DNA of 64,000 nucleotides from Lentisphaerota bacterium (GCA_013203785.1 JABMPJ010000161.1:10449-74448); one strand, 5' to 3'; counted from the first letter of the stretch, positions 2,858-61,748 are shown. Numbers and translations: made by a program. Notes: generated by a model from the letters alone, not told the origin.

Positions 2858-3778
2858 TTACTTCTCAAGAAAGGCCGCCATCCTCGGCGTCGCCGCCTCG
2901 GGCGCGGCGCTGGCGCCGTTGGTTGCCTCCCTGACCACACGCACGAAGAATTCCTCCAGATTCATGGAGGGCCGCGACAGCTCTGCTTCGCAGTCGCAGG
3001 TCTCTCGAATCGTCTGCAACAGCCGCCGGGTGGTAGCCGCATCGAGGACGGGGAGATCGAGGGTCATACGGTCGGGAGTTGCCAGAAGATCGCGCAGGTT
3101 ACCGGCCGCGCGCGGCTTACCGTTGTACATAATCACAACCCGGTCGCAGATATGCTCCACATCGGCTAGAAGGTGCGAGGTCAGCAGAATGGTCGTGCCT
3201 TGGTCCGCCAGGGCGCGCAGCATCTCCTTGACCTGACGGCAGCCCATCGGATCGAGACCCGAGGTCGGCTCATCCAGAATCAACAGCTCCGGAGCATTGA
3301 GCAGGGCCTGCGCCAGGCCGAGACGGCGGGCCATACCCTTTGAAAATTCGCCTACGGCGCGATCGGCCGCCGCCGTCAGCCCCGTCATTTCAAGGAGCTG
3401 ATCGGTACGGGCCCGCCGCTCCCTGGCGGAAAGATCGAAAAGCCGACCATAGAAGAGGAGGGTCTCGCGAGGGGTCAGGTAACGGTAGAGATGGGAAACC
3501 TCGGGCAGGTAGCCGATCCGCCGGTGAACAGCCACATCACCGGGACGCCCCTCCATCAACCGGATGCTACCCTCGGTGGGATGCAACAGCCCAAGCAGCA
3601 ACTTGATCGTGGTGCTCTTGCCGGATCCATTGGGACCGAGCAATCCAAAGATCTCGCCCCGTCGCACCGAGAGATTGAGTCCGTCCACGGCGCGCACTTT
3701 GGGTCGCCGCCAGAAGTCGCAGAAGACCTTCGTCAGCTGAACCACTTCCAGTATCGTGCTATTTGCTTTCTCTTGCAT
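2858..3778 (-). CDS. ABC transporter ATP-binding protein
   Basis: Walker A GPNGSGKST, signature and Walker B LILDEPTSGLDP, Q-loop and H-loop present. 306 aa. Confidence 0.88.
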   Translation of the reverse strand: MQEKANSTILEVVQLTKVFCDFWRRPKVRAVDGLNLSVRRGEIFGLLGPNGSGKSTTIKLLLGLLHPTEGSIRLMEGRPGDVAVHRRIGYLPEVSHLYRYLTPRETLLFYGRLFDLSARERRARTDQLLEMTGLTAAADRAVGEFSKGMARRLGLAQALLNAPELLILDEPTSGLDPMGCRQVKEMLRALADQGTTILLTSHLLADVEHICDRVVIMYNGKPRAAGNLRDLLATPDRMTLDLPVLDAATTRRLLQTIRETCDCEAELSRPSMNLEEFFVRVVREATNGASAAPEAATPRMAAFLEK

Positions 3779-3783
3779 AACGT

Positions 3784-4767
3784 CTACACATCCTTCTGTC
3801 GAAACAGGACTGTACCGAGACAGAGCAGCGCACTCGCATAGACCAGGGCATAGAGGGCCGCCAATCCCATGTAGCCGCCGGTGATAGATCCACCCGCATT
3901 AAGCTGATCACACACCCAGAAATGCTGCCAATTGGGTACCGCCGAATAGAGCAGACCGGCCCAGAGCGACTCGGTGGCGTGGAGGCCAAAGAGGTAGTCA
4001 CTCATCATACCCAATGCGAACACCGCGCTACAGCTCGCCAGCGTGGGGACCATTCCCACGACGGTGGAGAGTGTCATGGCCAGGGAGGACATCACCACCA
4101 AGCCCAGCGTGATTAGAACGGAAACCGGTACGAGGCGCCAATCGAGCCTCGTCGCAAAAGGAGCCCACTGACCGGTCCGATCAAAACAGGACGCCAGTAC
4201 AACGCACAGAAGCAGGCCGCCCAGAAGCGCCGTCGTGGTGACCGAGCCAAAGGGGCGCTGCCGCTTGTAGTTCACGACAGCACCCACCACGCATGCCGCG
4301 ACCATGACGGCAATCAGGAGGGCACCGGTCTGGCCATCGGTCACAAAGCCCGCTACACCGTCACGGTTAACAAAACGCTCGGCCACCCGTTCGGCGAGCA
4401 GCGTCGTGAGTCCGGCACAGAGGGAAAAGACCCCGACCACACCGACCACACCAACGAATTTGGAGAGAAAGAAGCAGTCGCGACTGACCGGCTTACTGAG
4501 TACGACCAGCGCTGTACCGCTCTCGAGCTCGCGTGACAGCGCGGTGGTTGCGGCATAGCCCGCGACAAAGACACCGAAGACCGCGTGCAGCGCAAAGGCG
4601 CTGTCCCGGACCAGTTTTCCATCTTCGCCGAAGCGATGCAGGATCAGGAACGGAAGCAGCGCCGTTAACGTGCTAGAGACCAGAATCAGGAGTAGACAGA
4701 CGGGCTGTCGCAGGGCTTCCAACGCTGTGAGCCCTGCCAACGCGACCGCCTGTCTCAAGCGGAACAT
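3784..4767 (-). CDS. ABC-2 type transporter permease
   Basis: 327 aa polytopic membrane protein immediately upstream of the ABC ATPase. Its start overlaps the pnp stop by 1 nt. Confidence 0.55.
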   Translation of the reverse strand: MFRLRQAVALAGLTALEALRQPVCLLLILVSSTLTALLPFLILHRFGEDGKLVRDSAFALHAVFGVFVAGYAATTALSRELESGTALVVLSKPVSRDCFFLSKFVGVVGVVGVFSLCAGLTTLLAERVAERFVNRDGVAGFVTDGQTGALLIAVMVAACVVGAVVNYKRQRPFGSVTTTALLGGLLLCVVLASCFDRTGQWAPFATRLDWRLVPVSVLITLGLVVMSSLAMTLSTVVGMVPTLASCSAVFALGMMSDYLFGLHATESLWAGLLYSAVPNWQHFWVCDQLNAGGSITGGYMGLAALYALVYASALLCLGTVLFRQKDV

Positions 4768-6878
4768 CAGCCCTCGCTCGCGACCTGTTCGTCCTTATCG
4801 CGCATGGCCTCTTTGCGGCTGAGTTTGATGCGGCCGCGGTCGTCAACACCGACGCACTTAACCCACATCTGATCACCCACCTTGCAGATATCCTCGACGC
4901 TACCAACGCGGAAGTCGGCCAGCTCGCTGATATGCACCAGACCATCCATCCCGGGAAAGATTTCGACGAAGGCACCGAATTCTTTCACGCCCGATACGCG
5001 GCCGTCGTAGATGGTCCCAACCTCAGCTTCGGCCGTAACCATCTCCACTTCGCGAACCGCTTGCTTCAGGGCTTCGGCGTTGGTGGCGAAGATGCTGACG
5101 GTGCCGTCCTCTTCGATATCGATCTGGGCTCCGGTCAGCTCGGTGATACGGCGAATATTCTTGCCCCCCGGGCCGATCAGCTCGCCAATCTTATCAACCG
5201 GAATGGTGACCTGCGAGATGCGCGGCGCGTGCTCACTCATCTCTTCACGGGGAGCCGAAATGACCCCCTCCATGAACTCGATCAGCTCGATGCGGGTCTT
5301 GCGAGCCAGTGCGAAGGCACCTTCGACGAGGTCCCAGCGCAAGCCGGGAATCTTCATATCAACCTGAAACCCGGTGATACCATCACGGGTACCGGCCACT
5401 TTGAAGTCCATGTCACCACAGTGATCCTCTGAGCCGATGATATCGGTCACCAGCTCGGCCCTATCGCCATCGGAGAAGAGACCAATCGAGATGCCCGCTA
5501 CGGGCCGCTTGATGGGCACGCCGGCATCCATCAGGGTCAGCGTACCGACACAGACGCTCGCCATTGAGGAGGAGCCGTTCGAGCCCATGATGTCGGACAC
5601 CAGACGGACCGTGTAGGGGTAATCATCCGGAAGCACATGCGCAAGTGAGCGCTCCGTCAGTGCCCCGTGGCCGATCTCGCGCCGACCGGTGAATCCCAGA
5701 CGTCCGGCTTCGCCAACGCTGTAGGGCGGGAAGTTGTAGTGCACCATGAAGCTCTTCGAAGCGATGCCGCCGGTGATCGCGTCGGTGCGCTGAATGTCGG
5801 ACTTGGTGCCCAGTGTCAGACTGCCCAATGCCTGCGTCTCGCCGCGGGAGAAGAGAGCCGAACCGTGCGTACGGGGCAGGACCGATACTTCTGCTTCGAG
5901 TGAACGGAGCTGATCGAAGCCGCGGCCATCCATGCGCTTGCCCTCGTTGAGGGCGAGGTCACGCACCGTCTCAATCTCGAAATCGTCGAATGTGGCGCGA
6001 TACTCCTCGGTCGTCATCTCCGGGAACTTCGCGAGCATGCCGGCTTCGAGGTCGGTCTTAACCGCGCTGACTTTGTCCTGGCGATCAAGCTTATCGGCGA
6101 TGCCAAGGGCCTCGGTCATGGCGGTGCGGCCCAGTTCACGCATGGCGACCAGCATGGGGGTCTCGGTTTCGGCGACCTCGATCACCTTCTCGGGCAGTCC
6201 GAGCTTGCTGCGTAGTTCGATCTGGGCAGCAATGATCTTCTCACAGGCGACCTGACCAAATCTCATGGCCGCGACAAGATCGGCTTCGCTGGCTTCTTTG
6301 CAGTCACCCTCAATCATCATGGGCAGCTCTTGCTTGCCGCAGTAGACGAGGTCTATATCACTCTTGGCGCGCTCCTCGTGGGTCGGATTGATGATGAACT
6401 CACCATCCACGCGACCAACGCGTACCCCAGCGATCGGGCCCATGAACGGAATGTCGGAGAGCGTCAGCGAAGCGCTCGATGCAACAATGCTGAGCATATC
6501 GGAATCATTCACCCCGTCTGCGGAGAGCAGCATGTTGTTGATCTGTACATCGTTGTGATAGCCCTTGGGAAAGAGAGGGCGAATCGGGCGGTCGGTTATA
6601 CGTGAGGTCAGAATCTCTTTCTCGGCCGGACGCGTCTCGCGCTTGAAGAAACCACCGGGAAAGCGGCCAGCGGCATAGAATTTCTCACGGTACTCGACCT
6701 GAAGAGGGAAGTAGTCGATACCTTCGCGCGGCTTGCTGCTGCACGTGACGGCAGAAAACAGGATTGTGTCGGCTAGGCGAACGGTGACGGCACCGGCGGC
6801 CTGATGGGCCATACGGCCGGTTTCGATGGTCAGGGTCTTACCTCCGATATCGACGGAGACGGACTGGATGTTACTCAT
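4767..6878 (-). CDS. pnp: polynucleotide phosphorylase / polyadenylase
   Basis: 703 aa. Starts [31 protein letters not shown]. Two RNase PH domains, then KH ([12 protein letters not shown]) and S1 C-terminal domains. Confidence 0.96.
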
Positions 6879-9529: not shown

Positions 9530-11716
9530 CTACAGTGTCTGGGCGATCTCGGAAAGCTCGTAGAACTCCAGGAGATCACCCTCGTCGTAGTCCATGCTCT
9601 TGTCCAGGCGGAGACCACATTCCTGTGCCTCGCGTACCTCGGCGACCTCGTCTTGGAAATGCTTGAGCGATTCGATGCGGCCTTCGCACAGGACCTCTTC
9701 GCCCCGCTTGACACGTGCGCGAAAACTCGGACGGATGTTGCCCTTAACCACGAGGCAGCCCGCCACCTTATTGCGGCGCCCCACCATAAAGACCTTGCGC
9801 ACCTCGGCCACACCCCGGACATCCTCATGGATCAGCGGTTTCAAGAGACCGGTCATCCCGTCACGCACCTCGTCGATCAGCTCATAAATCACCTGGTGCA
9901 GGCGAATTTCAACACCTTCGTGCTTGGCCACGGCGTCGATTCCGGATTCCTTACCCACATGAAAAGCCAACACAATCGCGTTGGAGGCGCTGGCCAGCAT
10001 AACATCGTTTTCAGTCACGTTGCCTGTGCCGCTCAAAATAATGTTGAGGATCACCTTGTCGCTCTGAATGTCTTCGAGCGAGGTCGCAATGGCCTCAACC
10101 GAGCCCTGCGTATCGGCCTTGAGCACAACCTTCAGCTCCATCTTCTCACCCTCTTCAATCTGTTTGAAAAGGGAGTCGAGGGAGGTCTTGACCGGCGCAT
10201 AGAGGTTCTCCTGACGCACCTTCGTCGCCTCGGCCGTCGCGAGCGAGCGGGCCGCCTTCTCGTTGGCATAGACCATGAAGCGGTCACCGGCACCCGGCAC
10301 ACCGGGCAGACCGAGCAATTTGACCGGAGTGGAGGGACCCGCCGACTTTATCTTGGCACCGTGGTCATTGATCAGAGCGCGGACCTTGCCAGAGTACGAA
10401 CCGCACAAAATGACATCGCCAATGCTCAGGGTACCCCGCTTAACCAGCACGGTCGCGGTCGGGCCCATGCCGGGCTCAAGCTGGGCCTCAATCACGAACC
10501 CCTCGGCGCGGCGGGAGGGGTTGGCCTTGAGCTCAAGGACCTCAGCCTGTAGCAGAATCATTTCGAGAAGATGGTCAATGCCATCGCCCGTCTCAGCGCT
10601 AACGGGACAGCAGATCACCTCGCCGCCCCAATCTTCCGGGGCCAATCCTTCAGTCTGCAGCTGCTGCATGACACGCTGCACATCCGCAGTCGGCATGTCG
10701 ATTTTATTGATAGCCACCATCATGGATACACCAGCCGCCTGGACGTGTTTGATCGCCTCGCGCGTCTGAGGCATGATGCCATCGTCGGCCGCAATAATGA
10801 TGACGGCCACATCCGTCAGGTTGGCACCTCGCGCCCGCATAGCAGTAAAAGCCGCGTGGCCGGGGGTGTCGAGGAAGGCGATCTTCTTGCCGCTCAACTC
10901 GACCGTATAGGCTCCGATGTGCTGGGTGATACCACCGGACTCACCGGCCGCCACCTTGGCGTTGCGAATTTTGTCGAGCAGCGAGGTCTTGCCGTGGTCA
11001 ACATGCCCCAGGAACGTCACAACCGGCGGACGCGGTTCCAGATCCTCGGACTGGTCCTCATCTTCGGGGCGTTCGGCCAATTTGTTGTCAATGCTGGGCC
11101 TGCGGCCGCGCTTCTCAATCTCGACCGTAAAGCCATGCTTGTCCGCGATCTTCTTGATCACCTGCACGTCGATGCTCTGGTTGATCGCGGCCAGAATGTT
11201 CATCTTCATCAGCTCAGCGATGATCACGTTCGGCTTGAGACTGATCACGTCAGCGAGGTGTTTGACGATAATGGGGCCGCGCAGACGCAGGATGTTACCA
11301 TCCACAACCTCCGCCAGCGGCAGGGCCGAGGCTCCTGAGTCCAGCTCGGGGGCAGCAACAGGAGCAGGCTTGGCGGGCTCGACGGAATCACTCTTCGCCT
11401 TGGCCTTGGCCTTGACATTCGCCTTGGGCAATGGTGCCTCGGGCACCACAATGCTGGGAGCCGGAGCCACCGCGACCGGGGCGGCAGTTTTTTTCGCCGG
11501 TTTGGCCTTCGGCTTAGCGGATGGAGACGTGGGGGCCGTCAGCTCGGGCGTGGGGGCGGGCTTGGGCGGTGGAGGGGCTTCGCCCCGCAATACAGCCAGC
11601 ATGGTGTCGTCCACAACCGCCATCTGGTTCTTGGCGACGACACCCATCTCGTGCAGCTTGAGCAGCACCTCTTTGCTGGTGACGCCGAGCTCTTTAGCTA
11701 TCAGAAAAACTTTCAT
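9530..11716 (-). CDS. infB: translation initiation factor IF-2
   Basis: 728 aa. N-terminal IF2_N ([12 protein letters not shown]), Ala/Pro/Lys-rich linker, G domain [12 protein letters not shown]...DTPGH. Confidence 0.96.
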
Positions 11717-11756
11717 AATCGTTTCCAGACGGCTTTCCCCGCCGACGCCTTCTTAC

Positions 11757-13268
11757 TCAGGCTTTCTCTTCTTTATCGTCGGACGCGGCCACTTCTTCGG
11801 CCGCCTCCGCCTCCGCAGGTGTCACGTCACCGGTAGCCTCATCCGGGATCGCGGCCTCTTCGAGTGGGGACTCTTCAACAGGCGTCGTTTCCGCTTCGGC
11901 TTCGGTTGTCGGTTCCGCTTCGGCTTCCGCCTCCACCTCGACGATCGCCTCAGGCAGGGCCTCGGCTTCCGCGTGGGCATCGACCTCAGACGCGGCCTCG
12001 GCCTCAGTGTCAGCCGCGGCACTGACAGGCTTAACCCCCATCGCGGCATCGTGGATGGTCTGGGCCACATCGAGCTCCAATCCGGTCATCTCGGCGAGCT
12101 CACTGACTTCGGCTGCCAGAATACCATCCACAGTCAGGAATCCGACGGTCACGAGGGCCTGAGCATTCACGGGCCCGATACCCTCTACCACAGCCAGGGC
12201 CTCGACGGCCTCGGCCAGCTGCTTCTCAAAGTCGGCCTCCTGCTCATCTTTCTGGATATCAACCTTCAGGCCAAGCAGTTTGGCGGTCAAGCGGACGTTC
12301 TGGCCACGCTTGCCTATGGCCAGCGAGAGCTGGTCAGCATCGGCCACGACGTGCACCAGGCCGGGATCATTCTCATCGATCGTCACCTTGGCCAATTTGG
12401 CCGGTGAGAGGGCGTTGGCCACGTACGTGCGCGTGTCATCACTCCACCGAATAATATCGATTTTCTCGCCGGAGAGTTCGCGAACGATGTTTTTGACGCG
12501 CATGCCGCGCATGCCAACGCACGCGCCGACCGGATCGACCTTCTCGTCGTGCGACAGGACCGCGATCTTGGTGCGGTAGCCCGCCTCACGAGCGATGCCC
12601 TTGATTTCCACAATGCCGTCGTTGATCTCAGAGACCTCGAGCTCAAAGAGCGTCCGCACAAAATTGGGATGACTGCGCGACAAAACCACGCCGGGCCCCG
12701 CTGATTCGCTACGCACATCCAGCACGTAGGCGCGAATGCGGTCGCCGATCTGATACTCCTCGGTGGGGACACGCTCGTTGGACGGTAGCAACGCCTCAGC
12801 GCGCCCCAAATCGATCACGATGTCGCTACGGTTGAACTGGCGCACCGACCCGCTCACGATATCACCCACACGGTCCTTATATTCTTCGTAGACGACATCC
12901 TTTTCGGCCTGCCGGATGCGCTGGATAATGGCCTGTTTGGCTGTTTGGGCGGCGATGCGACCAAAATCGCGAGGGGTCACCTCCACCTCGGTGAACTCAC
13001 CGAGCTCAGCCGCGGGATCAATCTCCAGCGCGTCGGCGAAAAGGACCTCTTCGTCCGCATGGGTCACATCTTCAACGACCAGCTTCTTGGCAAACGCCTT
13101 GATATCGTAGGTCTTGCGATCAATCTCTATACGGACATCCTTGTTTCGCGCCAAATTCTTGCGGGATGCCGACTGGAGCGCGTATTCGACCGCCTGAATA
13201 AGGATTTCGCGATCAAGACCACGCTCCTTCTCCATGTAGTTAAGAATCGCCTGCAGTTCGTTATTCAT
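11757..13268 (-). CDS. nusA: transcription termination/antitermination factor NusA (with long acidic C-terminal tail)
   Basis: 503 aa. Starts [29 protein letters not shown]1, KH1/KH2 and acidic-repeat domains. The E/A/T-rich C-terminal extension is unusual but conserved in order. Confidence 0.95.
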
Positions 13269-14311: not shown

Positions 14312-14974
14312 TTACTTCCTGCGGTTTCGTTTCCTGGCCTTCGCCGCCTGCTTCCGTTTGGCCTTCGCCTTCTTGCGGCTTGCGAGGTGAGGGCCAGAGG
14401 GTACCCCGGATGACCGAAGATGGTCCCCGTCCACCACCATATCCATGATCTGTTCGTCCTCATCGAGGATATATATAGGCTTCTCGCCGTTCCATGTTCC
14501 AAAGTAGTCGGGATCCTTCTTGCCGAAATAGTCTATGCCCACCACACGGCGGAAGGTGTAGCCATGCTTCACGCCGGTGGCCACCATCTGTTCATCAACA
14601 ATGACTGTCGGGCAGGTTGTGCAGAAGAAACCGGCCGGCGCAAGCATCGCGCGAGTTGCGATATCCGTGGCATAGATGAAATTGGCCGCCCTCCGCTGCG
14701 TCGCGGACTGACAAAGGGGACAGATCGCCACGTTCCCCAGGAACTTTTTCGAGTAGCCGTGGGTGACATTTCCTTCAAAAAGCGCGAGACCATTGCGCCG
14801 GATGACCTCCTCGGCCAATGCCTTTTGTGATTCCGCCTCAAAACTGTCGAGATCAACCGTTACCATCTTCCCATTGCGAAGAATACCGGGCTCCCTGCCG
14901 ACATCGGGGGTCACCGTCTCCTTCGTTTCGTCCACGCGCCTATTCTTCTCTCTAAATCGTTGGAACAGGTTCAT
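14312..14974 (-). CDS. hypothetical protein with two CxxC pairs and a polybasic C-terminal tail (KKAKAKRKQAAKARKRNRRK)
   Basis: 220 aa. ICPLCQ and FFCTTCP suggest a zinc ribbon; the tail suggests nucleic-acid binding. No family recognised. Its stop abuts the stop of the convergent gene at 14311 with 0 nt spacer. Confidence 0.45.
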   Translation of the reverse strand: MNLFQRFREKNRRVDETKETVTPDVGREPGILRNGKMVTVDLDSFEAESQKALAEEVIRRNGLALFEGNVTHGYSKKFLGNVAICPLCQSATQRRAANFIYATDIATRAMLAPAGFFCTTCPTVIVDEQMVATGVKHGYTFRRVVGIDYFGKKDPDYFGTWNGEKPIYILDEDEQIMDMVVDGDHLRSSGVPSGPHLASRKKAKAKRKQAAKARKRNRRK

Positions 14975-14981
14975 TCTTCCC

Positions 14982-15362
14982 TCATCTTCTCAGCGCCCTC
15001 CTGTAGCGCTGCATGCCACGCCGCACCAGCCCGCACGAGAACCGCGAGGCGATGACGAGACGGCCGTCAGCGACGACCGGTCGGCAGCTGATCGGTGCAG
15101 TTGGGAGGCGACGGTACATCCCACGTGCGAGACACCAGATAACCGGATGCGGCGAACGCAGAAGTATCCGCAGACATTCCTGCTCCATCGGCAAATGGAA
15201 ACCGCTGATAACGAGAACGCCTTCGTTCCGAAACCGCTTGGCGAGGTCATAGGTTTCGAGAATCAGTTTTCCCGGGCACTTGACGGAGCAGAACCGTGCG
15301 ACCTTGGGACGATCCAAGATTCCCGCGTCTCCGATAATCTGAATGGCTGGTTTGGCTGTCAT
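14982..15362 (-). CDS. short DprA/Smf-like (SLOG superfamily) Rossmann-domain protein, possibly a truncated remnant
   Basis: 126 aa. VLVISGFHLPMEQECLRILL...PVIWCLARGMYRRLP aligns position-for-position with the DprA core VVSGLAxGIDxxAHRGAL...TIAVLGxGLDxxYP. The downstream GRLVIASRFSCG resembles GxLlSExPxG. Too short for a full DprA Rossmann domain. Confidence 0.3.
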   Translation of the reverse strand: MTAKPAIQIIGDAGILDRPKVARFCSVKCPGKLILETYDLAKRFRNEGVLVISGFHLPMEQECLRILLRSPHPVIWCLARGMYRRLPTAPISCRPVVADGRLVIASRFSCGLVRRGMQRYRRALRR

Positions 15363-15565
15363 CGCTCAGTCTCAATCACTTGGGTTATCTCGTTTTACGT
15401 AGTTCCTGTCACGACCGATGATGGCCCCATTTGCCCCTTTGTGTCACCTTTGCTGCGTGAGCCATTCGCGAGCCATTTCCATCATCACTTCTCCGTGGCA
15501 CGTTTGGCGCGTTCTTGGCACGATTCGGTCTCTTGTTGCCGGATTCGTATTCTGGTGCGTTTGGT

Positions 15566-17050
15566 TCATTTATGGTGCGTTTGAGATGCGTTTGTTTGCC
15601 CCTTATGCCCCTTCATTGCCCCTTTCGCCACTCGGTAAAAGACGCCTCTCCCTGTAGTACCGACCTTCTCTACCAGTTTCATCTCTACCAACCCGGCCAG
15701 ATCAAGGGACGCGGTTCTCTTGGCAACAGAAAATGCCCGTTGATACTCCGTATTTGTCATGCGCCCGTGTGTCTTCATCAACCCAATGGCTCGGATTTTC
15801 CGCTCATTCAGGCCCAACTCATCTATCACCGCATCAGTAAGCCAATCACGCCAAATCACTGTGACAAACCGTTCTCCCTCACCGCGGAATTCCGGTTCCG
15901 GCAGACCGGCATCGGCGCACAACTGTATCATGTCGAGTGTCCCGGTTCCGGCCCGCTCGATATAGTGCGCCAGGTAGAGGGGTTCGCAGATCAAGCGATT
16001 GCGCGGAACGGAGGGATGCGGCCCTTTCAGCATGTCTGACGTCAGATCTTCCGGCAGGCCACCCGGATTCCAGATCTCGATGCGGTTGGCGAAGACCATG
16101 ACCTGCACGCCGGACTTGGAGGCATAGTTGCGATGGGCTACGGCGTTGACGATCGCCTCGCGTACAACCCGGAAGGGTACCTCATAGCTGACATCGCTTG
16201 CAGCCGACTTGTCGCTGGGCTTGACGGAGCGGTGCAGCCGGTCCATGACGAAATCCACGGCTTTGTCCACCACGTCAAACAAGGATCCATGATAGACTTG
16301 CTGGCTGGGGATAGGCTTTGCAATGGCGGTGCCATGGAAGTGCAGACACGTCACGTCAGCCGAACGGATAAACCGCTCCGGCGCGTCATTAAAGAGCAGG
16401 ATAGCGCCCCGTGTCGGTTTGCCTTTGGCGAGCAGGTTTAGGTGGGCCAGCGCCTCTTTGCGCGAGGTGTTGGGAGCAAGTGCATAGCTTCTTTCTGCAC
16501 GAGCCTTCTCTATAAACCAACGCATCTTTTGCGTCGAAATATCTTTGAGTGTAGCGTCATGGCAGGCAACTGCATCGAAATCTTTCGCCGCCACAAACCC
16601 ATGATCCTGTAGATACTGAATCAAGCTGCCGTAGAGCAGGCGCAGCATTTCGTCCGTATTCTCAAACCGCCGTCGGACAACTTCAGCCCCCGCACGTTCG
16701 ATCAGGGCCTTCATCATTGGCTTACGAGCCTTGTCGTCGCGTCCCTTCACCAGAATCAGGCGGCGTTTGCGAAGTCGCGTCGCTTCGGCGAACTCACGCT
16801 CCGTGGGCGACTGGCCACTATCGTCCGTCCATCCGTACTCGTTTCCAAAGACGCCGACGTAGATCGCGCTGTTCTTCACTTCATCGAGGTAGACGGCATC
16901 CGCCCGCCGATCCGCAGGCGGCAAGCCCTCAAACAGAAATACCCGGAAGAACTGCCGCAACAGGTCATGCCCATGAACAAAATCGCGCATGACATACCGC
17001 TCCGCCTGAAGCTCCTTCTGCACACTGCTTATGATTAATTGATCCATCAT
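15566..17050 (-). CDS. ATP-binding protein: DUF4062-like N-terminal domain + AlbA_2 (Schlafen-like divergent AAA) + HATPase_c_4 + C-terminal winged HTH
   Basis: 494 aa. The N-terminal block (LIISSVQKELQAER...SAIYVGVFGNEYG...SPTEREF) matches my recollection of DUF4062. AlbA_2 block ~190-300. HATPase_c_4 block VVREAIVNAVAHRNYASKSGVQVMVFANRIEIWNPGGLP. The wHTH lies in the last ~70 aa. The C-terminal low-complexity tail is encoded by short tandem DNA repeats. Confidence 0.7.
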   Translation of the reverse strand: MMDQLIISSVQKELQAERYVMRDFVHGHDLLRQFFRVFLFEGLPPADRRADAVYLDEVKNSAIYVGVFGNEYGWTDDSGQSPTEREFAEATRLRKRRLILVKGRDDKARKPMMKALIERAGAEVVRRRFENTDEMLRLLYGSLIQYLQDHGFVAAKDFDAVACHDATLKDISTQKMRWFIEKARAERSYALAPNTSRKEALAHLNLLAKGKPTRGAILLFNDAPERFIRSADVTCLHFHGTAIAKPIPSQQVYHGSLFDVVDKAVDFVMDRLHRSVKPSDKSAASDVSYEVPFRVVREAIVNAVAHRNYASKSGVQVMVFANRIEIWNPGGLPEDLTSDMLKGPHPSVPRNRLICEPLYLAHYIERAGTGTLDMIQLCADAGLPEPEFRGEGERFVTVIWRDWLTDAVIDELGLNERKIRAIGLMKTHGRMTNTEYQRAFSVAKRTASLDLAGLVEMKLVEKVGTTGRGVFYRVAKGAMKGHKGQTNASQTHHK

Positions 17051-17097
17051 CTCGCCATTGCGGCCATTACGAGACCTTGAGATTGTAAGTGGGAAAT

Positions 17098-18963
17098 CTA
17101 CAGCAGATGTTCCGCCTTGTAGTCATCATTGATGCAGTACCGGGGCTTGCCTTCCATGCGATGGATGAAGCCCGCTTTTTCCATACCGTTGAAAGCGCTT
17201 CTGGCCTTGCGAAGAAAACCATCGAACTTCTTGATGTTGCCGACTGCGACATGACTCTGGAACCACAGGGCGAGGCTTACTTGTCGTGCGCTGGGATAAG
17301 GGGTCTTCGAGTATCGGTTGAATCTGTAGACGATACTCAACAGATCTTTGCTGAAATCATGAAGCTGGTCGAAGGCTGCGCCATAAGCATCCCTCAACTC
17401 GACGATATGATCTCGCTTTAGCAGGAGACGATCGGCAATGTAAACCGGATGCAACGATGTGCTGCTCTGATGCTTGGAGATCAACCCCTTGTTTTCAAGA
17501 AACGAAATCTCGTTGAAGTGGTTGTTGTCGGGCGTGAGTAGAATTGTGTAGCGCAACTGCGCGTTTGCCCATTCTGACTTGATCAGGTAGGCAAGGATAC
17601 GCTTCTGCTGTTCGTTTAACGTTCGACCTTCCAGACGGTCCTCGATGTAGCGGTCGAAAGACAGAAACAGCGCTTCCATCCGGTCGTCCAAAAGTCGACC
17701 GGTGTTGAGAAACAGCCCGATGTCCGACTCCGAGTAGAAGCGATAGTACGGCAGATCAACGAGATTCTGTAAGCACAAGTCCACCATCGTCGCCATTCCT
17801 ATGCCCTTGCCTTCCCACTTGTTGAAGACCATGAGTACCATGGCCAGCTTGGGATTTCGCGGACGTGCCTCCGGTACAATACGCCTGACAGGAACGGAGT
17901 GGTCCGGCTCTTCGATAACCAGGTGTTTTCTGAAAGCGCCCGGATTTCGGATCTCTATATGGCTTCCCGGCTTGATCGTGATCGTAACATATTTGTCGAT
18001 AGAGTAATCACGATGCGCCAAGGCGTTGTTGACGGTCTCGCGAATCAAGGCCTGTGGATACTGGGGGGTTGCCGAACCGCCTTCATCCAGGCTTACCCCC
18101 ACCGGGATGTTTCTCATGACAAATGCGTTTGCCGCTTCCATGACGGGAAGTATGTTGCCGCTGATGACCTGCTTATCCTGAACAACGACCTGCGGGGCTT
18201 CCACATAACCATGAACGCGACAGCGAAACTGTAGATGGTCTTCGGGATGCTGACCGCAGACGAGCATGCCCAACGTCGTGACCTGGCCGTCTTTAACGAA
18301 GGCCTTCCGGCTGAGAAAGGACATAGCGGAATGGACATCCGGCTTCATGGTTTCCACTTTGGTCTGGCGATTGAGCAGCTGGATATACTCGTTGAGTTGA
18401 TCGATATCCAAGTCATTTGGTGTTGCGTTGGCAACCGGCATCAGTTCACGAGCTTGCAGGACATCTTCTTTGTATTCCTCTTGGCTCGATATTTCCGCTT
18501 CCGACAGCTTGTGATCACCTGTGAGAACACGGCGATAACCAACGCCATTCAAGAAACAGAACTTCTGATCGGCTGGAAGCTCATCCACGAAAACTACCGC
18601 CACCTGACCATCCATGAACGAGCGCAATTCCGGGTTCGGAAAAAGCGATTTCAGATCAAGCTTCCGTCCCTGACGATCCGTGAAGACCGCACCGAATTCC
18701 TTCAACTTCGGTTCCGCCTCGGAGCGGTAGCCTGTGAAGATGTAGCGGCTGGTTCCGGCTGACTGCTCTTCCTTTACTCCCAGCAACAGCACTCCACCAC
18801 GCGTATTGAGAAACGCATTGACGGTCTCATGTATGCTACGCCATTCCCCGCCGGTCGCGGGAACCGGTTTGATTTCGATTCCGTCGCTCTCCAACTCTTC
18901 AAACTCGCCGCCACGAATCAGCGGCTCCAGTTTTTCCAGCAATTGGTCTATGGTCTTGCGCAT
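17098..18963 (-). CDS. ATP-binding protein with two AlbA_2 (Schlafen-like) domains + HATPase_c_4 + long C-terminal domain
   Basis: 621 aa. First AlbA_2 at residues ~1-110 (GGEWRSIHETVNAFLNTRGGVLLLGV). Second AlbA_2 ~200-290. HATPase_c_4 motif LIRETVNNALAHRDYSIDKYVTITIKPGSHIEIRNPGAF. Paralogous to the upstream gene. Confidence 0.7.
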   Translation of the reverse strand: MRKTIDQLLEKLEPLIRGGEFEELESDGIEIKPVPATGGEWRSIHETVNAFLNTRGGVLLLGVKEEQSAGTSRYIFTGYRSEAEPKLKEFGAVFTDRQGRKLDLKSLFPNPELRSFMDGQVAVVFVDELPADQKFCFLNGVGYRRVLTGDHKLSEAEISSQEEYKEDVLQARELMPVANATPNDLDIDQLNEYIQLLNRQTKVETMKPDVHSAMSFLSRKAFVKDGQVTTLGMLVCGQHPEDHLQFRCRVHGYVEAPQVVVQDKQVISGNILPVMEAANAFVMRNIPVGVSLDEGGSATPQYPQALIRETVNNALAHRDYSIDKYVTITIKPGSHIEIRNPGAFRKHLVIEEPDHSVPVRRIVPEARPRNPKLAMVLMVFNKWEGKGIGMATMVDLCLQNLVDLPYYRFYSESDIGLFLNTGRLLDDRMEALFLSFDRYIEDRLEGRTLNEQQKRILAYLIKSEWANAQLRYTILLTPDNNHFNEISFLENKGLISKHQSSTSLHPVYIADRLLLKRDHIVELRDAYGAAFDQLHDFSKDLLSIVYRFNRYSKTPYPSARQVSLALWFQSHVAVGNIKKFDGFLRKARSAFNGMEKAGFIHRMEGKPRYCINDDYKAEHLL

Positions 18964-19054
18964 TGTTCACCTCGCAATCTGTCTCTTCTTCACTCCGACC
19001 CAGCGCCCCGCCCATGCGGTATTTGATGTCGTAATTGATGATGAAATCCACGCC

Positions 19055-19519
19055 TTACCCCCGTCCCAACCGCTGCGCCTGATGCACCAAGTCCTTACAG
19101 GCATCGCCGCACTGCTGGAACTCGGCTTGCGAATTGCCACAGACGGTGTTCGCGAAACGCCCGAAAGACGGAAGTCCCTTCTCGTCGGCGTTTGTGGGAA
19201 TCCCAACCATCAGCTGATCGCGAAAATCCTGGGCGAGCTTTCGCTTGAGAGCAATGGCCGTAGCCTGGTCGATTTGCTCCCCATCTTTGGCGAGACTCAT
19301 GGAATGCCGCAGTTGGTCCTGTGGCATTTGCTGCATGCCGACGAGCAGGCGGCAGCAGTGGCCCTCGCCGCCGGACCAATTCTCGATGGATTCGTGCAGT
19401 TGTCGCCATCCACGGAGGTTGAAATACCCGACGCAGAAGTCGCCACGGTGACAAAGCCCGAGCGTCTCCTGCAGGGCCGGCAGAAGTCTCTCCTCAATGT
19501 TGTCAAAGATGCGAGGCAC
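19055..19519 (-). pseudogene. truncated N-terminal fragment of a PLD-like nuclease / SF2 helicase-type defence protein
   Basis: 154 aa ORF MPRIFDNIEERLLPALQETLGLCHRGDFCVGYFNLRGWRQL...GHCCRLLVGM. The fDN..l..l......d..vGYFnlrGw...iRllvG pattern is typical of the N-terminal PLD-like domain fused to restriction/defence helicases. It ends before any HxK motif or helicase motifs, and only ~90 nt remain before the next gene. Confidence 0.45.
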
Positions 19520-43827: not shown

Positions 43828-44886
43828 TCATATGTTTGACCTCTTCTCGCCTTTGCTCAGTCGTAGCGCCACCTTGTCGAAATCCGACTCCTTGTGGTCT
43901 TCTGCGACAATACATCGACGATTGAACGTCTCGTACTCGCCCTCGGCTCGCGCAACGGCCATCTCATGGGATATTTTTCCCGCGTGCGTCAGGATGTCTC
44001 GTTCATTCAAGTTTAGAAATGCATCCAGCTTGGCACTCCAGTCCGTCATGTGCATCGGGACACGCCGCATCGCTCGCCCCTCGGCAAAAATCAGGTATTG
44101 CTCGACCAGGTTGTTCAGCGCCAGAAGTTCCTCCTCGGCCAAGTAGTTCTTTGCGATCGTGACGTCTGCCTTACGCAGCTTGTTGCCGCGCCAATTTGTC
44201 AGCCCCATGTTCTTCTTCTCGGCATCGACACGGTCGTGGATGATTTCGGCAGCCGTCATGCCGGTTATGGCCCAGTGCATCTTGTTTTGCACGGTCCTGA
44301 AGAAGTCGATGCTGATTTCCTGCGTGGGATCATAGTCGACGCTCGTGGCGTAAATATCAGTGATCTTCTGGTAGAAGCGACGTTCAGACGTCCGTATATC
44401 CTGAATTCGCCGCAGGAGCTCTTCAAAGTAGTCGAACGGCTGGTCTGGATTCTTGAGTCGCTCATCGTCCAAAAGGAATCCCTTGACCAGATACTCACCG
44501 AGCCGTTGCGTGGCCCACTGGCGGAAACGCGTAGCCACATGGGATTTCACGCGATAACCCACGGAGATGATCATATCCAGATTGTAGTAATCCAATTCCC
44601 GCTGAACATTCCTTGCCCCCTCCTGGCGAACCGTTAAGGATTTCTTAACAGTTGCCTCCGGAGCCAACTCACCCTCCTCATAGACATTCCGGATGTGCAT
44701 GCTGATGTTAGGAACCGTGGTCTGAAACAGCTCTGCCATAAGTTGCTGCGTCAGCCAGACGGTCTCGTTCTCCAGGCGCACCTCGATACGGGGTGTACCG
44801 TCCGCATCCTGGTAGACCAGCACCTCGCCGTGGGATTCGGCCTTCTCGGGGCTGACAGAATCATATTTTGCTGGCTTGTTGCTCAC
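43828..44886 (-). CDS. rhuM: RhuM-family virulence/Fic-DOC-associated protein
   Basis: 352 aa. EVLVYQDADGTPRIEVRLENETVWLTQQLMAELFQ...YYNLDMIISVGYRVKSHVATRFRQWATQRL is the canonical RhuM N-terminal block. Confidence 0.8.
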   Translation of the reverse strand: MSNKPAKYDSVSPEKAESHGEVLVYQDADGTPRIEVRLENETVWLTQQLMAELFQTTVPNISMHIRNVYEEGELAPEATVKKSLTVRQEGARNVQRELDYYNLDMIISVGYRVKSHVATRFRQWATQRLGEYLVKGFLLDDERLKNPDQPFDYFEELLRRIQDIRTSERRFYQKITDIYATSVDYDPTQEISIDFFRTVQNKMHWAITGMTAAEIIHDRVDAEKKNMGLTNWRGNKLRKADVTIAKNYLAEEELLALNNLVEQYLIFAEGRAMRRVPMHMTDWSAKLDAFLNLNERDILTHAGKISHEMAVARAEGEYETFNRRCIVAEDHKESDFDKVALRLSKGEKRSNI

Positions 44887-45320
44887 ACCTTCACCTCCAC
44901 CGTGATGCTTGCATCTAAGCCAAATGTCTGTCCCACCTTCGCGCAGGCCGTGTATGTGCCCTTCAACGGGTCCTGTACAAGCACATCGGCAGGAATGCCC
45001 AATCCGTTGTAAAGCTTGCGAATCATAGCCAAACTCAGTGGGCGTTTCCGGTTCAATACCTCTGACACCTTGCTCTTGCTTCCGATATGGGGAACAAGAT
45101 CAGCCTGCTTCAATCCCTGCTGTTCCATGCGGAACTTGAGGGCGTCAATGGGGTCTGGCATGGCAATTGGATACTGCGCAGCCTCGAACTCCTCGACGAG
45201 ATGCAGAAGCAATTCAAGCTCATCGCCCTCGGCGGTGCCAGGGCTTGCATTGAATATCGCATCGATGCGCGCCAGTGCCGCTTCGTGGTCTGCTTTCGTT
45301 CTGATGAGTCGAACATTCAT
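44883..45320 (-). CDS. HigA-family HTH (XRE-type) antitoxin-like protein, no cognate HigB detected
   Basis: 145 aa. C-terminal GLKQADLVPHIGSKSKVSEVLNRKRPLSLAMIRKLYNGLGIPADVL matches the HigA block (GLT.SDL..IGSKS.VS.VL.GKR.LTL....KLA..FGISP). 4-nt overlap with the downstream rhuM. Confidence 0.6.
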   Translation of the reverse strand: MNVRLIRTKADHEAALARIDAIFNASPGTAEGDELELLLHLVEEFEAAQYPIAMPDPIDALKFRMEQQGLKQADLVPHIGSKSKVSEVLNRKRPLSLAMIRKLYNGLGIPADVLVQDPLKGTYTACAKVGQTFGLDASITVEVKV

Positions 45321-57638: not shown

Positions 57639-58628
57639 GTGACAATGCCAGGCAAACCATACCAGTCCAAACTGGCCCCGCATGAGGCCGAGATCTTCGA
57701 ACTGCGGGACAAGGGCGTTACATACCGAGCCATTGCGGAGCAGCTCAGTCTACGCCATGCCCTGAATGTCACCCACAATGCCGTCTTCTCGTTCCTGAAG
57801 ACCCGGGGCCCCACCCGCGGTGGTGGCCGGTTGTTCTACGAGGGATTCTCCCCAGATATCCGCGAGCAACTCCTCAAGCGAATCACGGCCGAGTGGACGC
57901 ACGACTCAACGGCGATTGAAGGCAATACACTTACGCTCGGCGAAACCATAAAGGTATTGGAGCTTGGCCTGACCGTCAGCGGCAAGCCACTGAAGGATCA
58001 CCAGGAGGTCTATGGTCATGCCCACGCCATTGACCTGATCTATGCCATGATTGCCCGAGCTGAGATTAGCGAAGACGATCTTTGCGATCTGCACCGTTCG
58101 ATCATGCATCAGGCTCCAGTCGATGCCATGAACCCCATCGGGGCCTGGAAGCGGGACTACAATGGAACCACGGGGGCCAGAGATGGGAAAAGCATCTACA
58201 TGGAATACGCAGAACCGGCGGCTATTCCCCGACTCATGAAACGCTGGCTCGGGGATTTCAACGGTACTGAAAAGTGTACGGGGCGGCCGGAGCAAGCCAT
58301 TGCAGCATATGTTCGTGCACACATGATTTTTGTCCGTATCCATCCCTTCTTCGATGGCAACGGCCGCATGGCACGTCTACTCGCCAACATCCCCGTTCTA
58401 CGTGGCGGCTTCCCGCCCGTGGTGGTTCCCGCAGAGCGTCGGTCCGACTACATCGGATTGCTGTGGGAGTATCAGAATGACGCCGGCACGATTCGCCCCG
58501 GCTCACGCCTCATGCCTCCGCACCCCGCCATCAGACAGATGGAAAAACTGCTCAAGAACGAATGGACCAAAACCGTCTCGCTCGTAGAGGAAGCCCTTAG
58601 GCGGCAGGCGGCAAGAAGCCACAAGTAG
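57639..58628 (+). CDS. fic: Fic-family protein (class II-like, N-terminal inhibitory [ST]xxxE[GN] motif) with N-terminal HTH-like region
   Basis: 329 aa. HPFFDGNGRMARLL Fic motif. STAIEGN inhibitory-helix motif. N-terminal AEIFELRDKGVTYRAIAEQLSL. Confidence 0.85.
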   Translation: MTMPGKPYQSKLAPHEAEIFELRDKGVTYRAIAEQLSLRHALNVTHNAVFSFLKTRGPTRGGGRLFYEGFSPDIREQLLKRITAEWTHDSTAIEGNTLTLGETIKVLELGLTVSGKPLKDHQEVYGHAHAIDLIYAMIARAEISEDDLCDLHRSIMHQAPVDAMNPIGAWKRDYNGTTGARDGKSIYMEYAEPAAIPRLMKRWLGDFNGTEKCTGRPEQAIAAYVRAHMIFVRIHPFFDGNGRMARLLANIPVLRGGFPPVVVPAERRSDYIGLLWEYQNDAGTIRPGSRLMPPHPAIRQMEKLLKNEWTKTVSLVEEALRRQAARSHK

Positions 58629-58770
58629 CGGGGATGTTCTACTCATGCCTCTCACTATTTACGGATCCACGAAGCTCTCGTGGACAAGGGACACCGGCTA
58701 TTTGTGGTGCGAGATCAGAGCTGAGTCCTCAGTGGCTGCGACAGGACGCAGCTAACCATGGACGTCTTTG

Positions 58771-59058
58771 TTATGCCGCCGCCAGTCTCTTGACGTGCAA
58801 CGCTTTGGGACTTTGTTCGGCCACCCAGAGATCGTATTGCACCTGCTGGTGCAGCCAGCTCTCCGGGGTTGTGTCGAACGCCTTTCCCAAACGCATGGCC
58901 ATTTCGGGACTGATCCCGGAGCGACCATTCAGAATGGCCGACAGGGTCTTCCTCGCAACGCCGAGCGCCTCGGCTGCGTCGGTTACGGAAAGCCCCAAAG
59001 GTTCCAGGCACAACTCTCGCAGGACCTCTCCAGGATGGGGGGGATTGTGCATTCTCAT
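58771..59058 (-). CDS. higA: HigA antitoxin (XRE-type HTH)
   Basis: 95 aa. [61 protein letters not shown]. Confidence 0.88.
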
Positions 59059-59070
59059 ATCTCTTCTCTC

Positions 59071-59349
59071 CTAATGATAGTCCTCGTAGTCAACATCGAT
59101 CACATCCGCACCATCGAACACGAATGTGATACTCCAATTGCCGCTGACCGAGACCGCCCATGTTCCCTTGCGCTTCCCCTTGAGCGGGTGCAATCTCAGT
59201 CCCGGCAAATCCATGTCCCGTGGAGACATGGAAGCATGTAGGCGACCAAGGATTAGCCTGATTCGCTTCTCATGCTTGGCTTGGATACCGGCCTTTGTGC
59301 CTTTCGTGAAATACCGCTCTAGCCCACGATGGCAAAATCCATTGATCAT
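59071..59349 (-). CDS. higB: HigB toxin (RelE/ParE superfamily, plasmid maintenance system killer)
   Basis: 92 aa. MINGFCHRGLERYFTKG...RLILGRLHASMSPRDMDLPGLRLHPLKGKRKGTWAVSVSGNWSITF. Toxin-first order, typical of higBA. Confidence 0.88.
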   Translation of the reverse strand: MINGFCHRGLERYFTKGTKAGIQAKHEKRIRLILGRLHASMSPRDMDLPGLRLHPLKGKRKGTWAVSVSGNWSITFVFDGADVIDVDYEDYH

Positions 59350-59684
59350 GATTCAACCGTAACGCGATACGTATCAGGTGGCAATCAGTTTCTTTATGAG
59401 GCATAACATTCAAGCTCTCCGGCGGCTGTAGGCCGCGCGAGAGCAGCGCTGTGTGGGGCATCTTCCGATTCGTGAGTGAAGCGTGTTTCCAGTTTCGATT
59501 CTGCTGACAAGCCTCGATCTCGAACGGTCGGCAACATGCCGACCCTCCCAAACGCCTTTAAAAAACATGTTTTGTGACGGGAGGGACGGCGTGTCGCCGT
59601 CCGCATAGGGGTTTTTCAGCAGAATCCAGTTTCTAAGTTTGACCCTGTCGCCTAATTGAGCGGTCACCGATATGGATGGCCCCT

Positions 59685-61190: not shown

Positions 61191-61230
61191 GAAACCTCCG
61201 TGAAAGAGAAGAACTACCCGTGAATAATAC

Positions 61231-61355
61231 GCCAGAATTGTGGCTGGTCAATAGAAACGCGCCAGACTAAGGTCATTTTTGGATGTTGTGAGAAAACAGT
61301 GCCAGAGTAGAGAACAGCATGCCAGAATATACATCCCCATGAAAGGTGCGCCAGA
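61231..61355. repeat. five direct GCCAGA hexamers spaced ~10n bp (61231, 61261, 61301, 61321, 61350) upstream of the large fic gene
   Basis: Spacings of 30/40/20/29 bp put all copies on one DNA face. Flanking context is (a/t)(c/g)GCCAGA(a/g). Confidence 0.5.
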
Positions 61356-61468
61356 GCTGCCATACTTTTTGCATGGTCCTGTTGAGAGGCCATCAGTGAG
61401 ATCTTCAGCTATTCAAGTCGGCAAGGTGAAGTCAATTACATGGCCCTCGGCAGCGTCGCCTTCGCGAT

Positions 61469-61519
61469 CCTATCCCGGTGATAACCAGCAAACACCGTTG
61501 CTGGTGACGACCAGGATAG
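61469..61519. repeat. ~51-bp imperfect palindrome with perfect CCAGCAA/TTGCTGG core
   Basis: CCTATCCCGGTGATAACCAGCAAacaccgTTGCTGGTGACGACCAGGATAG. Confidence 0.45.
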
Positions 61520-61748
61520 TAGTCACTCATGCGCCTATGAGCTAGTGCCTTGAATGTTATATGTTGATTCCGTTGAAAAACCCCCTGTTTCAGCCGCCCT
61601 CTGAGCCGCTGGGCGGGTAGTGTGGCGCGCGGCTCGTTGCCTCCTATCGGCCATGGTTTTCGGTGGTGGCCACCCTTCGGGCAACCTGGGGCGATCAGAG
61701 CTGGATTCTTTGCGACTGAACCAGCCGTGAACGGCGCAGAAGGCTCTC

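Follow-up and report, generated by a model that had tools for sequence, protein, structure and literature searches.

Two adjacent Lentisphaerota genes probably encode independent defence proteins with different predicted enzymes on a common GHKL–winged-helix chassis

We analysed a 64,000-nucleotide (nt) stretch of a Lentisphaerota bacterium genome (GCA_013203785.1 JABMPJ010000161.1:10449-74448; hereafter the window), in which two adjacent genes, here called gene 1 and gene 2, encode distantly related proteins with different predicted N-terminal enzymes, i.e. a DUF4062/NIR NADase in gene 1 and a Schlafen RNase in gene 2 (Table 1). We consider it reasonably probable that each of the two is an anti-phage module complete in a single gene and independent of the other, that both use the same chassis with an N-terminal enzyme of their own, and that they lie in an islet of decayed defence genes. 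The domain architecture is assigned because Pfam, sequence matches in the Protein Data Bank (PDB), AlphaFold2 (AF2) models and fold searches agree. The independence is proposed because the two gene types were found near each other in 0/80 and 2/80 of the loci inspected for the two families, and because the nearest relatives of both genes are unpaired.

An earlier, sequence-only reading of this stretch placed two open reading frames (ORFs) of 494 and 621 amino acids (aa) here, and both are present exactly as described. They are co-directional on the minus strand, with gene 2 upstream, gene 1 downstream and a spacer of 47 nt between them. The same reading called them tandem paralogues with different N-termini, which our comparisons bear out: residues 165-389 of gene 1 align with residues 179-408 of gene 2 in BLASTP (24% identity over 239 aa, E 7e-13), the GHKL segments match in hhalign with a probability of 98%, and the middle segments give a weak yet collinear hhalign match. 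This relatedness is confined to the middle subdomain and the GHKL domain. At the level of sequence comparison, gene 1 and gene 2 are confirmed as distant paralogues. Their common chassis consists of the middle subdomain, the GHKL domain and a winged helix, while the N-terminal enzyme differs: the DUF4062/NIR domain of gene 1 occupies the position of the Schlafen RNase on the chassis, i.e. an effector swap. According to these alignments and the models described below, each protein carries a predicted effector, a predicted ATP switch and a putative winged-helix module of its own.

The N-terminal region of gene 1 matches DUF4062 (PF13271) over residues 7-90 with 57.8 bits (cut-off 24.7; E 1.3e-15), and a profile of 20 homologues matches the DUF4062 structure of KpSwz (10wc) over residues 3-171 (E 4e-9). 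E84 of gene 1 falls on 10wc chain residue E82, the KpSwz glutamate, which equals the catalytic E97 of the literature provided that the 15-C construct offset holds; the catalytic glutamates of NIR proteins are E97 in KpSwz, E108 in PsAvs2 and E98 in Vulcan. In the 20-homologue alignment E84, E298, N302 and the glycine motifs of gene 1 are invariant. The AF2 model, with a predicted local distance difference test score (pLDDT) of 82.5, contains a beta-alpha N-domain (residues 1-150, the beta-alpha repeat spanning residues 3-150), the middle subdomain, a GHKL-like sandwich and a winged helix-turn-helix (wHTH, residues 403-476). Foldseek matches of the N-domain include NDT (8pqt, 2a0k), TIR-STING, SARM1 TIR and L7 TIR, with probabilities of ∼1 and weak E values (3e-3 to 2e-2). 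The earlier suggestion that DUF4062 serves as a putative effector or signalling module at the N-termini of STAND-type NTPases has meanwhile been substantiated elsewhere: the domain, an effector module of STAND/Avs proteins, is a TIR-like NADase that needs a conserved glutamate and acts by abortive infection (10.64898/2026.09.04.749371; 10.64898/2026.05.01.722283).

The remainder of gene 1 is assigned as follows: (i) HATPase_c_4 (PF13749) matches residues 314-398 (72.5 bits, E 3e-20); (ii) a PDB sequence search aligns the GHKL domain with residues 294-400 of 3lmm, which is also the top Foldseek match of the model (E 9e-14); and (iii) MarR-family regulators are among the fold matches of the C-terminus. 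DUF4062, HATPase_c_4 and wHTH, all three named in the sequence-only reading, are therefore retained on Pfam and AF2 grounds, and the AlbA_2 (Schlafen) domain that it also named is dropped. A Pfam search at E<=10 found nothing beyond DUF4062 and HATPase_c_4, hhalign of the middle region against the Schlafen domain of gene 2 was negative, and no SLFN structure occurs among the top 50 fold matches. The hhalign probabilities of the rejected AlbA_2 comparisons, both for gene 1 and for a supposed second copy in gene 2, are 0.3-1.8%. Gene 1 therefore falls outside the Schlafen proteins.

The public protein call of gene 1 is 474 aa long and starts at Met21 (locus L166, 4366-5790), leaving out window positions 16991-17050. 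Residues 1-20 are conserved in the family, with S9, Q11, K12, E13 and R18 invariant, and in the model they supply the opening strand and helix of the predicted NADase fold; the deposited protein is therefore N-terminally truncated. At the other end, the tail is disordered (pLDDT <50) and its KG pattern is conserved in the family. The short tandem DNA repeats reported to straddle the stop of gene 1 and to encode this KG-rich tail are real: CAAACGCAYC has its sole copies in the window here (three, against 0.43 expected), and the three copies of AAGGGGCA code for the KGxxKGxKG tail that is conserved family-wide. No separate function of the repeats is indicated; the AAGGGGCA copies simply encode the tail.

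The gene 1 family has confirmed matches in at least 214 species-representative genomes and forms ∼178 clusters at 50% identity (E<=1e-30 over the NIR and middle regions), mostly of collinear proteins of 480-550 aa. Its members are spread over many bacterial and some archaeal phyla.

In gene 2, the residues E25-x4-E30-x-K32 align with E200/E205/K207 of SLFN12 and fit the Ex4(E/D)xK motif of prokaryotic Schlafens (PMC13056530). E25, E30 and K32, together with E309 and N313, are invariant in an alignment of 20 homologues. Conservation in the family extends along the entire protein, with identities of 55-89% across phyla, and many homologues carry PF04326/PF13749. Fold matches include 3lmm (Foldseek E 2e-16), the AlbA_2 nuclear magnetic resonance domain 2kyy and SLFN13/14/11/5. 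One AlbA_2 domain, the HATPase_c_4 domain and the long C-terminal region proposed earlier for this protein thus stand, the first two on fold evidence together with Pfam matches just under cut-off. The second AlbA_2 domain is rejected, since the middle region is unlike the protein's own Schlafen domain in hhalign and finds nothing in Pfam at E<=10. The AF2 pLDDT of residues 423-621 is mostly 84-94. Part of this region (aa ∼442-499) aligns with the wHTH of gene 1 in hhalign (probability 44%, E 2.4e-4), and weak fold matches connect it with winged helices of MukE/F, kleisin and RPC62. We read residues 423-621 as two winged-helix-like modules on the basis of the model. Gene 2 is an ordinary member of the Schlafen-GHKL-helix-turn-helix (HTH) class ('Schlatpase').

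The PADLOC models Aga_SIR2-PNTD1-PNTD2 and pAgo match the middle/GHKL regions of both proteins, at aa 195-341 of gene 1 and aa 172-350 of gene 2 (E down to 7e-15). The same module may thus be part of Argonaute-associated SIR2 proteins, which would be another NADase on this chassis; a literature search returned nothing on the meaning of the 'PNTD1/PNTD2' labels.

The adjacency of two such paralogues had been taken as a sign of a two-component system, e.g. a GHKL hetero-oligomer in which one protein senses and the other executes. We regard such a system as highly improbable. It would be in keeping with the co-directional, closely spaced genes with no predicted terminator between them, and with the GHKL module common to both, which in a relative mediates oligomerisation. 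However, the pairing does not recur. We compared 80 genome loci of the gene 1 family and 80 metagenome loci of the gene 2 family, each including flanks of up to 10 kb. None of the 80 gene 1-family loci has a gene 2 orthologue within 10 kb, three of them holding other, distant paralogues, and a gene 1-like gene lies near, not next to, two of the 80 gene 2-family members (L099 and L111). In L099 (Ga0224558_1001879), an NIR-GHKL-wHTH gene with 48% identity to gene 1 (3502-4926) follows hsdM in a type I restriction–modification (R-M) operon that also contains a gene 2 orthologue (10001-11881) between hsdS and hsdR. L111 has a gene 1-type fragment at its contig end and looks like a partial second example. 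That one operon can hold both families might be cited in favour of a joint system, but in L099 the two genes are ∼5 kb apart and separated by hsdS and several others; L099 and L111 represent a shared niche, not adjacency.

The closest relatives give the same picture. Those of gene 2 (89% and 87% identity) are unpaired and followed by unrelated genes on the opposite strand. Upstream of that of gene 1 (84%, L164), the first 200 nt hold no sign of gene 2, and downstream (L164, 1812-2684) come an intact DprA/PsyrA-like gene and then a CBASS-type oligonucleotide cyclase. Furthermore, each protein has its own predicted effector, switch and C-terminal module, and the GHKL regions are just ∼24% identical. 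The sequence-only reading had itself named independent occurrence of the two genes in other genomes as the observation that would speak against a two-component system, and this is what the loci contain. The tandem arrangement is incidental, and the two do not recur as neighbours in the 80 + 80 loci. A related idea, that in genomes with both genes the GHKL modules co-assemble so that one trigger would fire both tRNA cleavage and NAD+ loss, is conceivable, though the evidence does not favour it.

We then determined the genomic niches of both families by clustering the flanking ORFs and scanning representatives. Members of the gene 1 family occur in the order HKD/PLD-Snf2 helicase, gene, variable inserts, DUF1156 methylase and DUF499 ATPase, or alternatively DUF499, DUF3780, DUF1156, gene and helicase. 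These DUF499, DUF3780, DUF1156 and helicase proteins are 'anti-phage-associated' in NCBIfam and match PADLOC Hma models; a 2026 survey names the DUF499-centred systems BREX-related (BR) systems (PMC12839542). The family is also found in type 1 BREX (PglX, gene, PglZ, BrxL; or BrxC, gene, PglX) and sometimes in type I R-M. In the gene 2 family the order HsdM, (YhcG or others), HsdS, gene and HsdR is recurrent. The association of both families with defence that the sequence-only reading had expected is thus borne out by relatives inside restriction-like operons. Targeted tblastn probes found defence-type genes within 10 kb in 26/80 gene 1-family and 18/80 gene 2-family loci, which are lower bounds given the limited probe set and the many short contigs. 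For comparison, 69.6% of Schlafen genes have a defence gene no more than 10 kb away (PMC13056530), and 20% of NIR genes lie near defence genes against 3.9% expected (10.64898/2026.09.04.749371). Many members of both families occur without a recognisable partner system. Schlafen-minimal-histidine-kinase-wHTH genes have been described as 'back-up' effectors in BREX/BR loci of at least 1017 taxa (PMC12839542), and the recurrent embedding of both families in restriction-like operons would fit a back-up role.

Two BR/Hma operons contain two chassis paralogues each, namely L007 (3905-4960 and 10001-11425) and L009 (2567-3622 and 8890-10341). In both, one paralogue (∼25% identical to residues 43-421 of gene 2) directly follows the helicase, and the NIR-type gene lies further on. 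The post-helicase slot of these operons seems to be a hot spot for chassis cargo. Among the contigs of a viral collection, the gene 1 family was found in one and gene 2 in none; the one case is L170 (IMGVR_UViG_3300010356_002547), which may be a true phage or a misbinned island and where positions 1321-2523 encode a gene 1 relative with 53% identity over residues 2-401. Neither family is phage-borne to any extent.

The conserved position inside R-M and BREX operons could also be expected of HTH transcriptional regulators of the neighbouring restriction genes, in which the N-terminal domains would bind ligands. Both proteins have C-terminal winged helices, and the public names, 'predicted HTH transcriptional regulator' and 'ATP-dependent DNA helicase RecG', point to regulators or 'RecG-like helicases'. 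We nevertheless think this quite unlikely: homologues from different phyla all keep the glutamate of the NADase fold as well as the complete Ex4ExK motif, the homologous domains are experimentally known as enzymes that kill or arrest the cell, and Pfam finds no helicase domain in either protein.

A mechanism for two proteins that work independently can be modelled on their characterised relatives. The PF13749 GHKL domain of a Schlafen-Argonaute protein (RzAgo) binds and hydrolyses ATP via E314/N318, and its ATP binding leads to tetramerisation that pairs the Schlafen domains into an active tRNase (10.64898/2026.05.29.728809). The predicted counterparts of E314/N318 are E298/N302 in gene 1 and E309/N313 in gene 2, all of them invariant. 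Prokaryotic Schlafens defend against phages by tRNA cleavage (PMC13056530). KpSwz becomes active on higher-order assembly, with a winged-helix AUX domain as sensor and the phage portal as trigger (10.64898/2026.05.01.722283). We suggest that each protein would act alone: its C-terminal winged-helix region might sense a phage-derived cue, ATP binding to the GHKL domain would drive homo-oligomerisation, and this would bring the N-terminal domains together. In gene 2, the Schlafen RNase site would thereby be completed and tRNA cleaved; in gene 1, an active NADase would be assembled and NAD+ drained. Either tRNA cleavage or NAD+ loss could then abort the infection.

Several points weigh against this interpretation. 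(i) The NADase, RNase, ATP-binding and oligomerisation activities of gene 1 and gene 2 are ascribed by homology throughout. (ii) The sensing role of the winged helix is a guess, with DNA binding as a regulator the alternative. (iii) Both Pfam matches of gene 2 are below the curated cut-offs: AlbA_2 (PF04326, residues 25-68) scores 23.7 bits, slightly under 25.3, and HATPase_c_4 (PF13749, residues 335-408) scores 21.3 bits, under 26. (iv) The AF2 pLDDT is <50 over much of residues 240-390 of gene 2, i.e. the GHKL region (window ∼17794-18246). (v) A recognised defence neighbour is present in just about one-third of the family loci, a fraction obtained with a limited probe set and no matched control set. 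(vi) Given the 47-nt gap with no predicted terminator, co-transcription and some cross-talk of the two genes are possible in this one genome; in a promoter and terminator scan of the region, signals did not exceed the shuffled expectation, so the scan is uninformative on co-transcription. As to the fourth point, residues 240-390 are poorly modelled despite many invariant residues, and the model of gene 1 is good over the corresponding region; the low pLDDT may reflect the shallow 20-sequence alignment or a genuinely mobile ATP lid.

The pair has been left adjacent in a ∼5 kb low-GC islet of decayed defence genes between housekeeping genes. The GC content is 0.51-0.58 across 13-20 kb, compared to ∼0.60-0.63 in the flanks, which encode IF-2, NusA and a redoxin on one side and an acyltransferase, DUF6941 and DnaG primase on the other. 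Upstream of gene 2, the helicase remnant has 49% identity (E 3e-32) to a helicase-related protein of Pelobacter plasmid pPRO1 that itself matches the PADLOC HKD+Snf2 model, and in Pelobacter a type IIG-like methyltransferase directly follows this helicase. In the window, the helicase N-terminus (115 residues) and the probable methylase tail are ∼120 nt apart (19004-19519). These similarities are suggestive of an internal deletion of ∼6 kb that would have collapsed the helicase/methylase pair, although the methylase match is short. The 154-aa upstream ORF was also considered as a fragment of the PLD-Snf2 helicases of the BR type in the fetched loci, and tblastn and blastp gave nothing significant; a search of plasmid proteins instead matched it to the N-terminus of a related HKD-Snf2 helicase, whose partner is a type IIG-like methylase. 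Downstream of gene 1, the truncated DprA/PsyrA-like gene has 94% identity to the intact 191-aa gene behind the gene 1 relative on L164 and PADLOC PsyrA/ShosA matches. No intact core restriction-like system was found in the window, where the helicase remnant and the possible methylase tail are present instead.

In such surroundings, gene 1 and gene 2 might themselves be leftovers without function that share the decay of the islet around them. Truncation or deletion has affected three defence genes next to them, and the probable companion restriction-like system is gone, so that the genes would be orphaned if they needed a partner. We judge this rather unlikely, as both ORFs are full length compared to their families and keep every family-invariant residue, and as many family members exist without recognisable partner systems. 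Two intact single-gene modules in a decayed islet remain our preferred reading.

Table 1. Features of the gene pair and of the surrounding islet, in window coordinates
Feature	Position	Strand	Description and basis
Gene 2	17098..18963	-	621 aa; predicted Schlafen RNase, GHKL ATPase and tandem winged-helix C-terminus ('Schlatpase'/pSlfn HisKinase-HTH type); ORF, Pfam, family conservation, fold matches
Gene 2, Schlafen (AlbA_2) nuclease domain, predicted	18454..18906	-	aa ∼20-170; motif E25-x4-E30-x-K32 at 18868-18891
Gene 2, GHKL (HATPase_c_4) ATP-binding domain, predicted	17698..18066	-	aa 300-422; N-box E309/N313, NPG 340-342, GxGxG 385-389; Pfam, hhalign, invariant motifs
Gene 2, C-terminal region	17101..17697	-	aa 423-621; helical with small hairpins; AF2, hhalign, fold matches
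Gene 1	15566..17050	-	494 aa; predicted DUF4062/NIR TIR-like NADase, GHKL ATPase, wHTH and KG-rich tail, without Schlafen domain; ORF, Pfam, family alignment, AF2, fold matches
Gene 1, NIR (DUF4062) domain	16601..17050	-	aa 1-150; predicted catalytic Glu84 at 16799-16801; PF13271, 10wc profile match
Gene 1, middle subdomain and GHKL domain	15845..16600	-	aa 151-289 and aa 290-402; N-box E298/N302, NPGG 328-331, GTGT 368-371; PF13749, BLASTP, hhalign, PDB 3lmm
Gene 1, winged HTH and disordered KGxxKGxKG tail	15569..15844	-	aa 403-476 and aa 477-494; AF2, MarR fold matches, PDB sequence matches to wHTH proteins
Short DNA repeats around gene 1 stop	15554..15624	-	CAAACGCAYC x3 (15554-15594), AAGGGGCA x3 (15597-15624)
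HKD(PLD)-Snf2 helicase remnant	19172..19519	-	ORF 19055-19519; residues 1-115 of ∼1100 aa; upstream of gene 2
Probable last ∼16 codons of a type IIG-like methyltransferase	19004..19051	-	81% over 16 aa, E 0.002, to residues 1065-1080/1088 of the Pelobacter methyltransferase
Truncated DprA/PsyrA-like gene	15039..15362	-	ORF 14982-15362; downstream of gene 1; first 108/191 codons kept, then diverges
Orphan gene	14312..14974	-	220 aa; distal islet edge; 65-member phylum-patchy family, no Pfam match

The 220-aa protein encoded by the orphan gene has a CxxC...CxxC pattern, and its tail is rich in K/R. Its relatives (L167, L168 and L169) come last in RM-like loci, behind a type IIG enzyme and an AAA ATPase or behind HsdM N-terminal fragments.

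Two further low-GC stretches occur in the window. The second patch (GC content 0.54) contains a RhuM-family gene (E 2.5e-112) and a small HTH gene (43828-45320, minus strand); RhuM genes are often located in R-M or defence loci. The third (57639-62279) contains Fic/DOC genes at 57639-58628 (plus strand) and 59685-61190 (minus strand) and a DDE transposase fragment at 61749-62279 (minus strand). The first of these Fic genes clusters with Fic-like genes inside R-M/BR operons (L025, L087, L040 and L002). A match to 8cil raised the idea that gene 1 and the two Fic proteins of the window have a winged helix in common, and no similarity was found.

With regard to what is known, we propose tentatively, and with more doubt than confidence, that the NIR-GHKL-wHTH proteins (the gene 1 family) might constitute a distinct, widespread and unnamed single-gene NAD+-depleting defence family, in which a GHKL switch would gate a TIR-like NADase. 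In BREX, BR/Hma and type I R-M systems, this module and the Schlafen RNase could then replace each other as back-up suicide effectors. If this is true, a GHKL ATP switch would gate the NADase in place of a STAND NTPase or a phage-protein scaffold. What is useful here is gene 1: a chassis known to drive a Schlafen tRNase, in this case with a TIR-like NADase. Effector swapping is a familiar theme, and the present case is a clean pair on one chassis, i.e. a natural matched pair of RNase and NADase for asking how GHKL-driven oligomerisation activates unrelated effectors. The pair also bears on the signal that is sensed by accessory genes inside restriction-like systems, and the gene 1 family is an added candidate for the newly recognised DUF4062/NIR defence repertoire. 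For annotation, neither protein is a RecG helicase, gene 1 is not Schlafen, and the 474-aa call drops the first strand of the NADase fold.

Among NIR proteins, KpSwz of Swarozyc (10.64898/2026.05.01.722283, PDB 10wc) has the solved structure most closely related to the N-domain of gene 1. Swarozyc is, like gene 1, a single-protein system with a C-terminal HTH/winged module, but gene 1 differs by an insert of ∼250 aa (middle subdomain and GHKL) between the NADase and the winged helix. We found no similarity of gene 1 to the AUX domain of KpSwz, the PDB match ending at chain residue 179/326. Gene 1 is not a Swarozyc, as it does not combine DUF4062 with a stalk and a portal-binding winged-helix AUX domain. 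NIR-Avs2, Vulcan (NIR-HEAT), Vesta (NIR and phosphatase) and Evangelion (10.64898/2026.09.04.749371; 10.64898/2026.06.25.731849) resemble gene 1 in having an N-terminal NIR domain with a conserved glutamate, a sensing or oligomerising module and a location in defence islands. Unlike in gene 1, the partners of NIR in these other proteins are a STAND NTPase with TPR, HEAT repeats or other AUX regions. The main text of the three DUF4062 papers makes no mention of a GHKL/HATPase, histidine-kinase-like or Schlafen-type partner of NIR, although their figures and most of their supplements lie outside this statement and may already depict one.

Gene 1 relatives also resemble the back-up effectors of BREX and BR (Hma) systems (PMC12839542; Hma, PMC11232893) in sitting between core genes, i.e. 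PglX/PglZ and helicase/DUF1156/DUF499, in the slots where the survey places Schlafen-minimal-HK-wHTH genes. The catalogue of that survey consists of nucleases (HEPN, PIN, Schlafen, OLD and others), whereas gene 1 is a predicted NADase; the text of the survey does not mention DUF4062, TIR or NADase. The core system itself is missing from this window or has been deleted.

Both models find their best structural match in DIP2311 of Corynebacterium diphtheriae (3lmm), an AlbA_2-HATPase_c_4-HTH protein that also matches the GHKL and wHTH of gene 1 in sequence. It has a Schlafen-type N-domain, which gene 1 lacks, and is an uncharacterised structural-genomics entry. The closest known class is Schlatpase/pSlfn HisKinase-HTH (PMC13056530; 10.64898/2026.05.29.728809). 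Gene 2 is alike in its AlbA_2 Ex4ExK nuclease, PF13749 E...N site and C-terminal HTH-type module, and in occurring as a stand-alone gene inside type I R-M operons; its C-terminus is longer (∼200 aa, apparently two winged helices) than the typical short HTH. Gene 1 differs from this class in having DUF4062/NIR instead of the Schlafen domain, and has the same middle subdomain, GHKL, wHTH and genomic niches.

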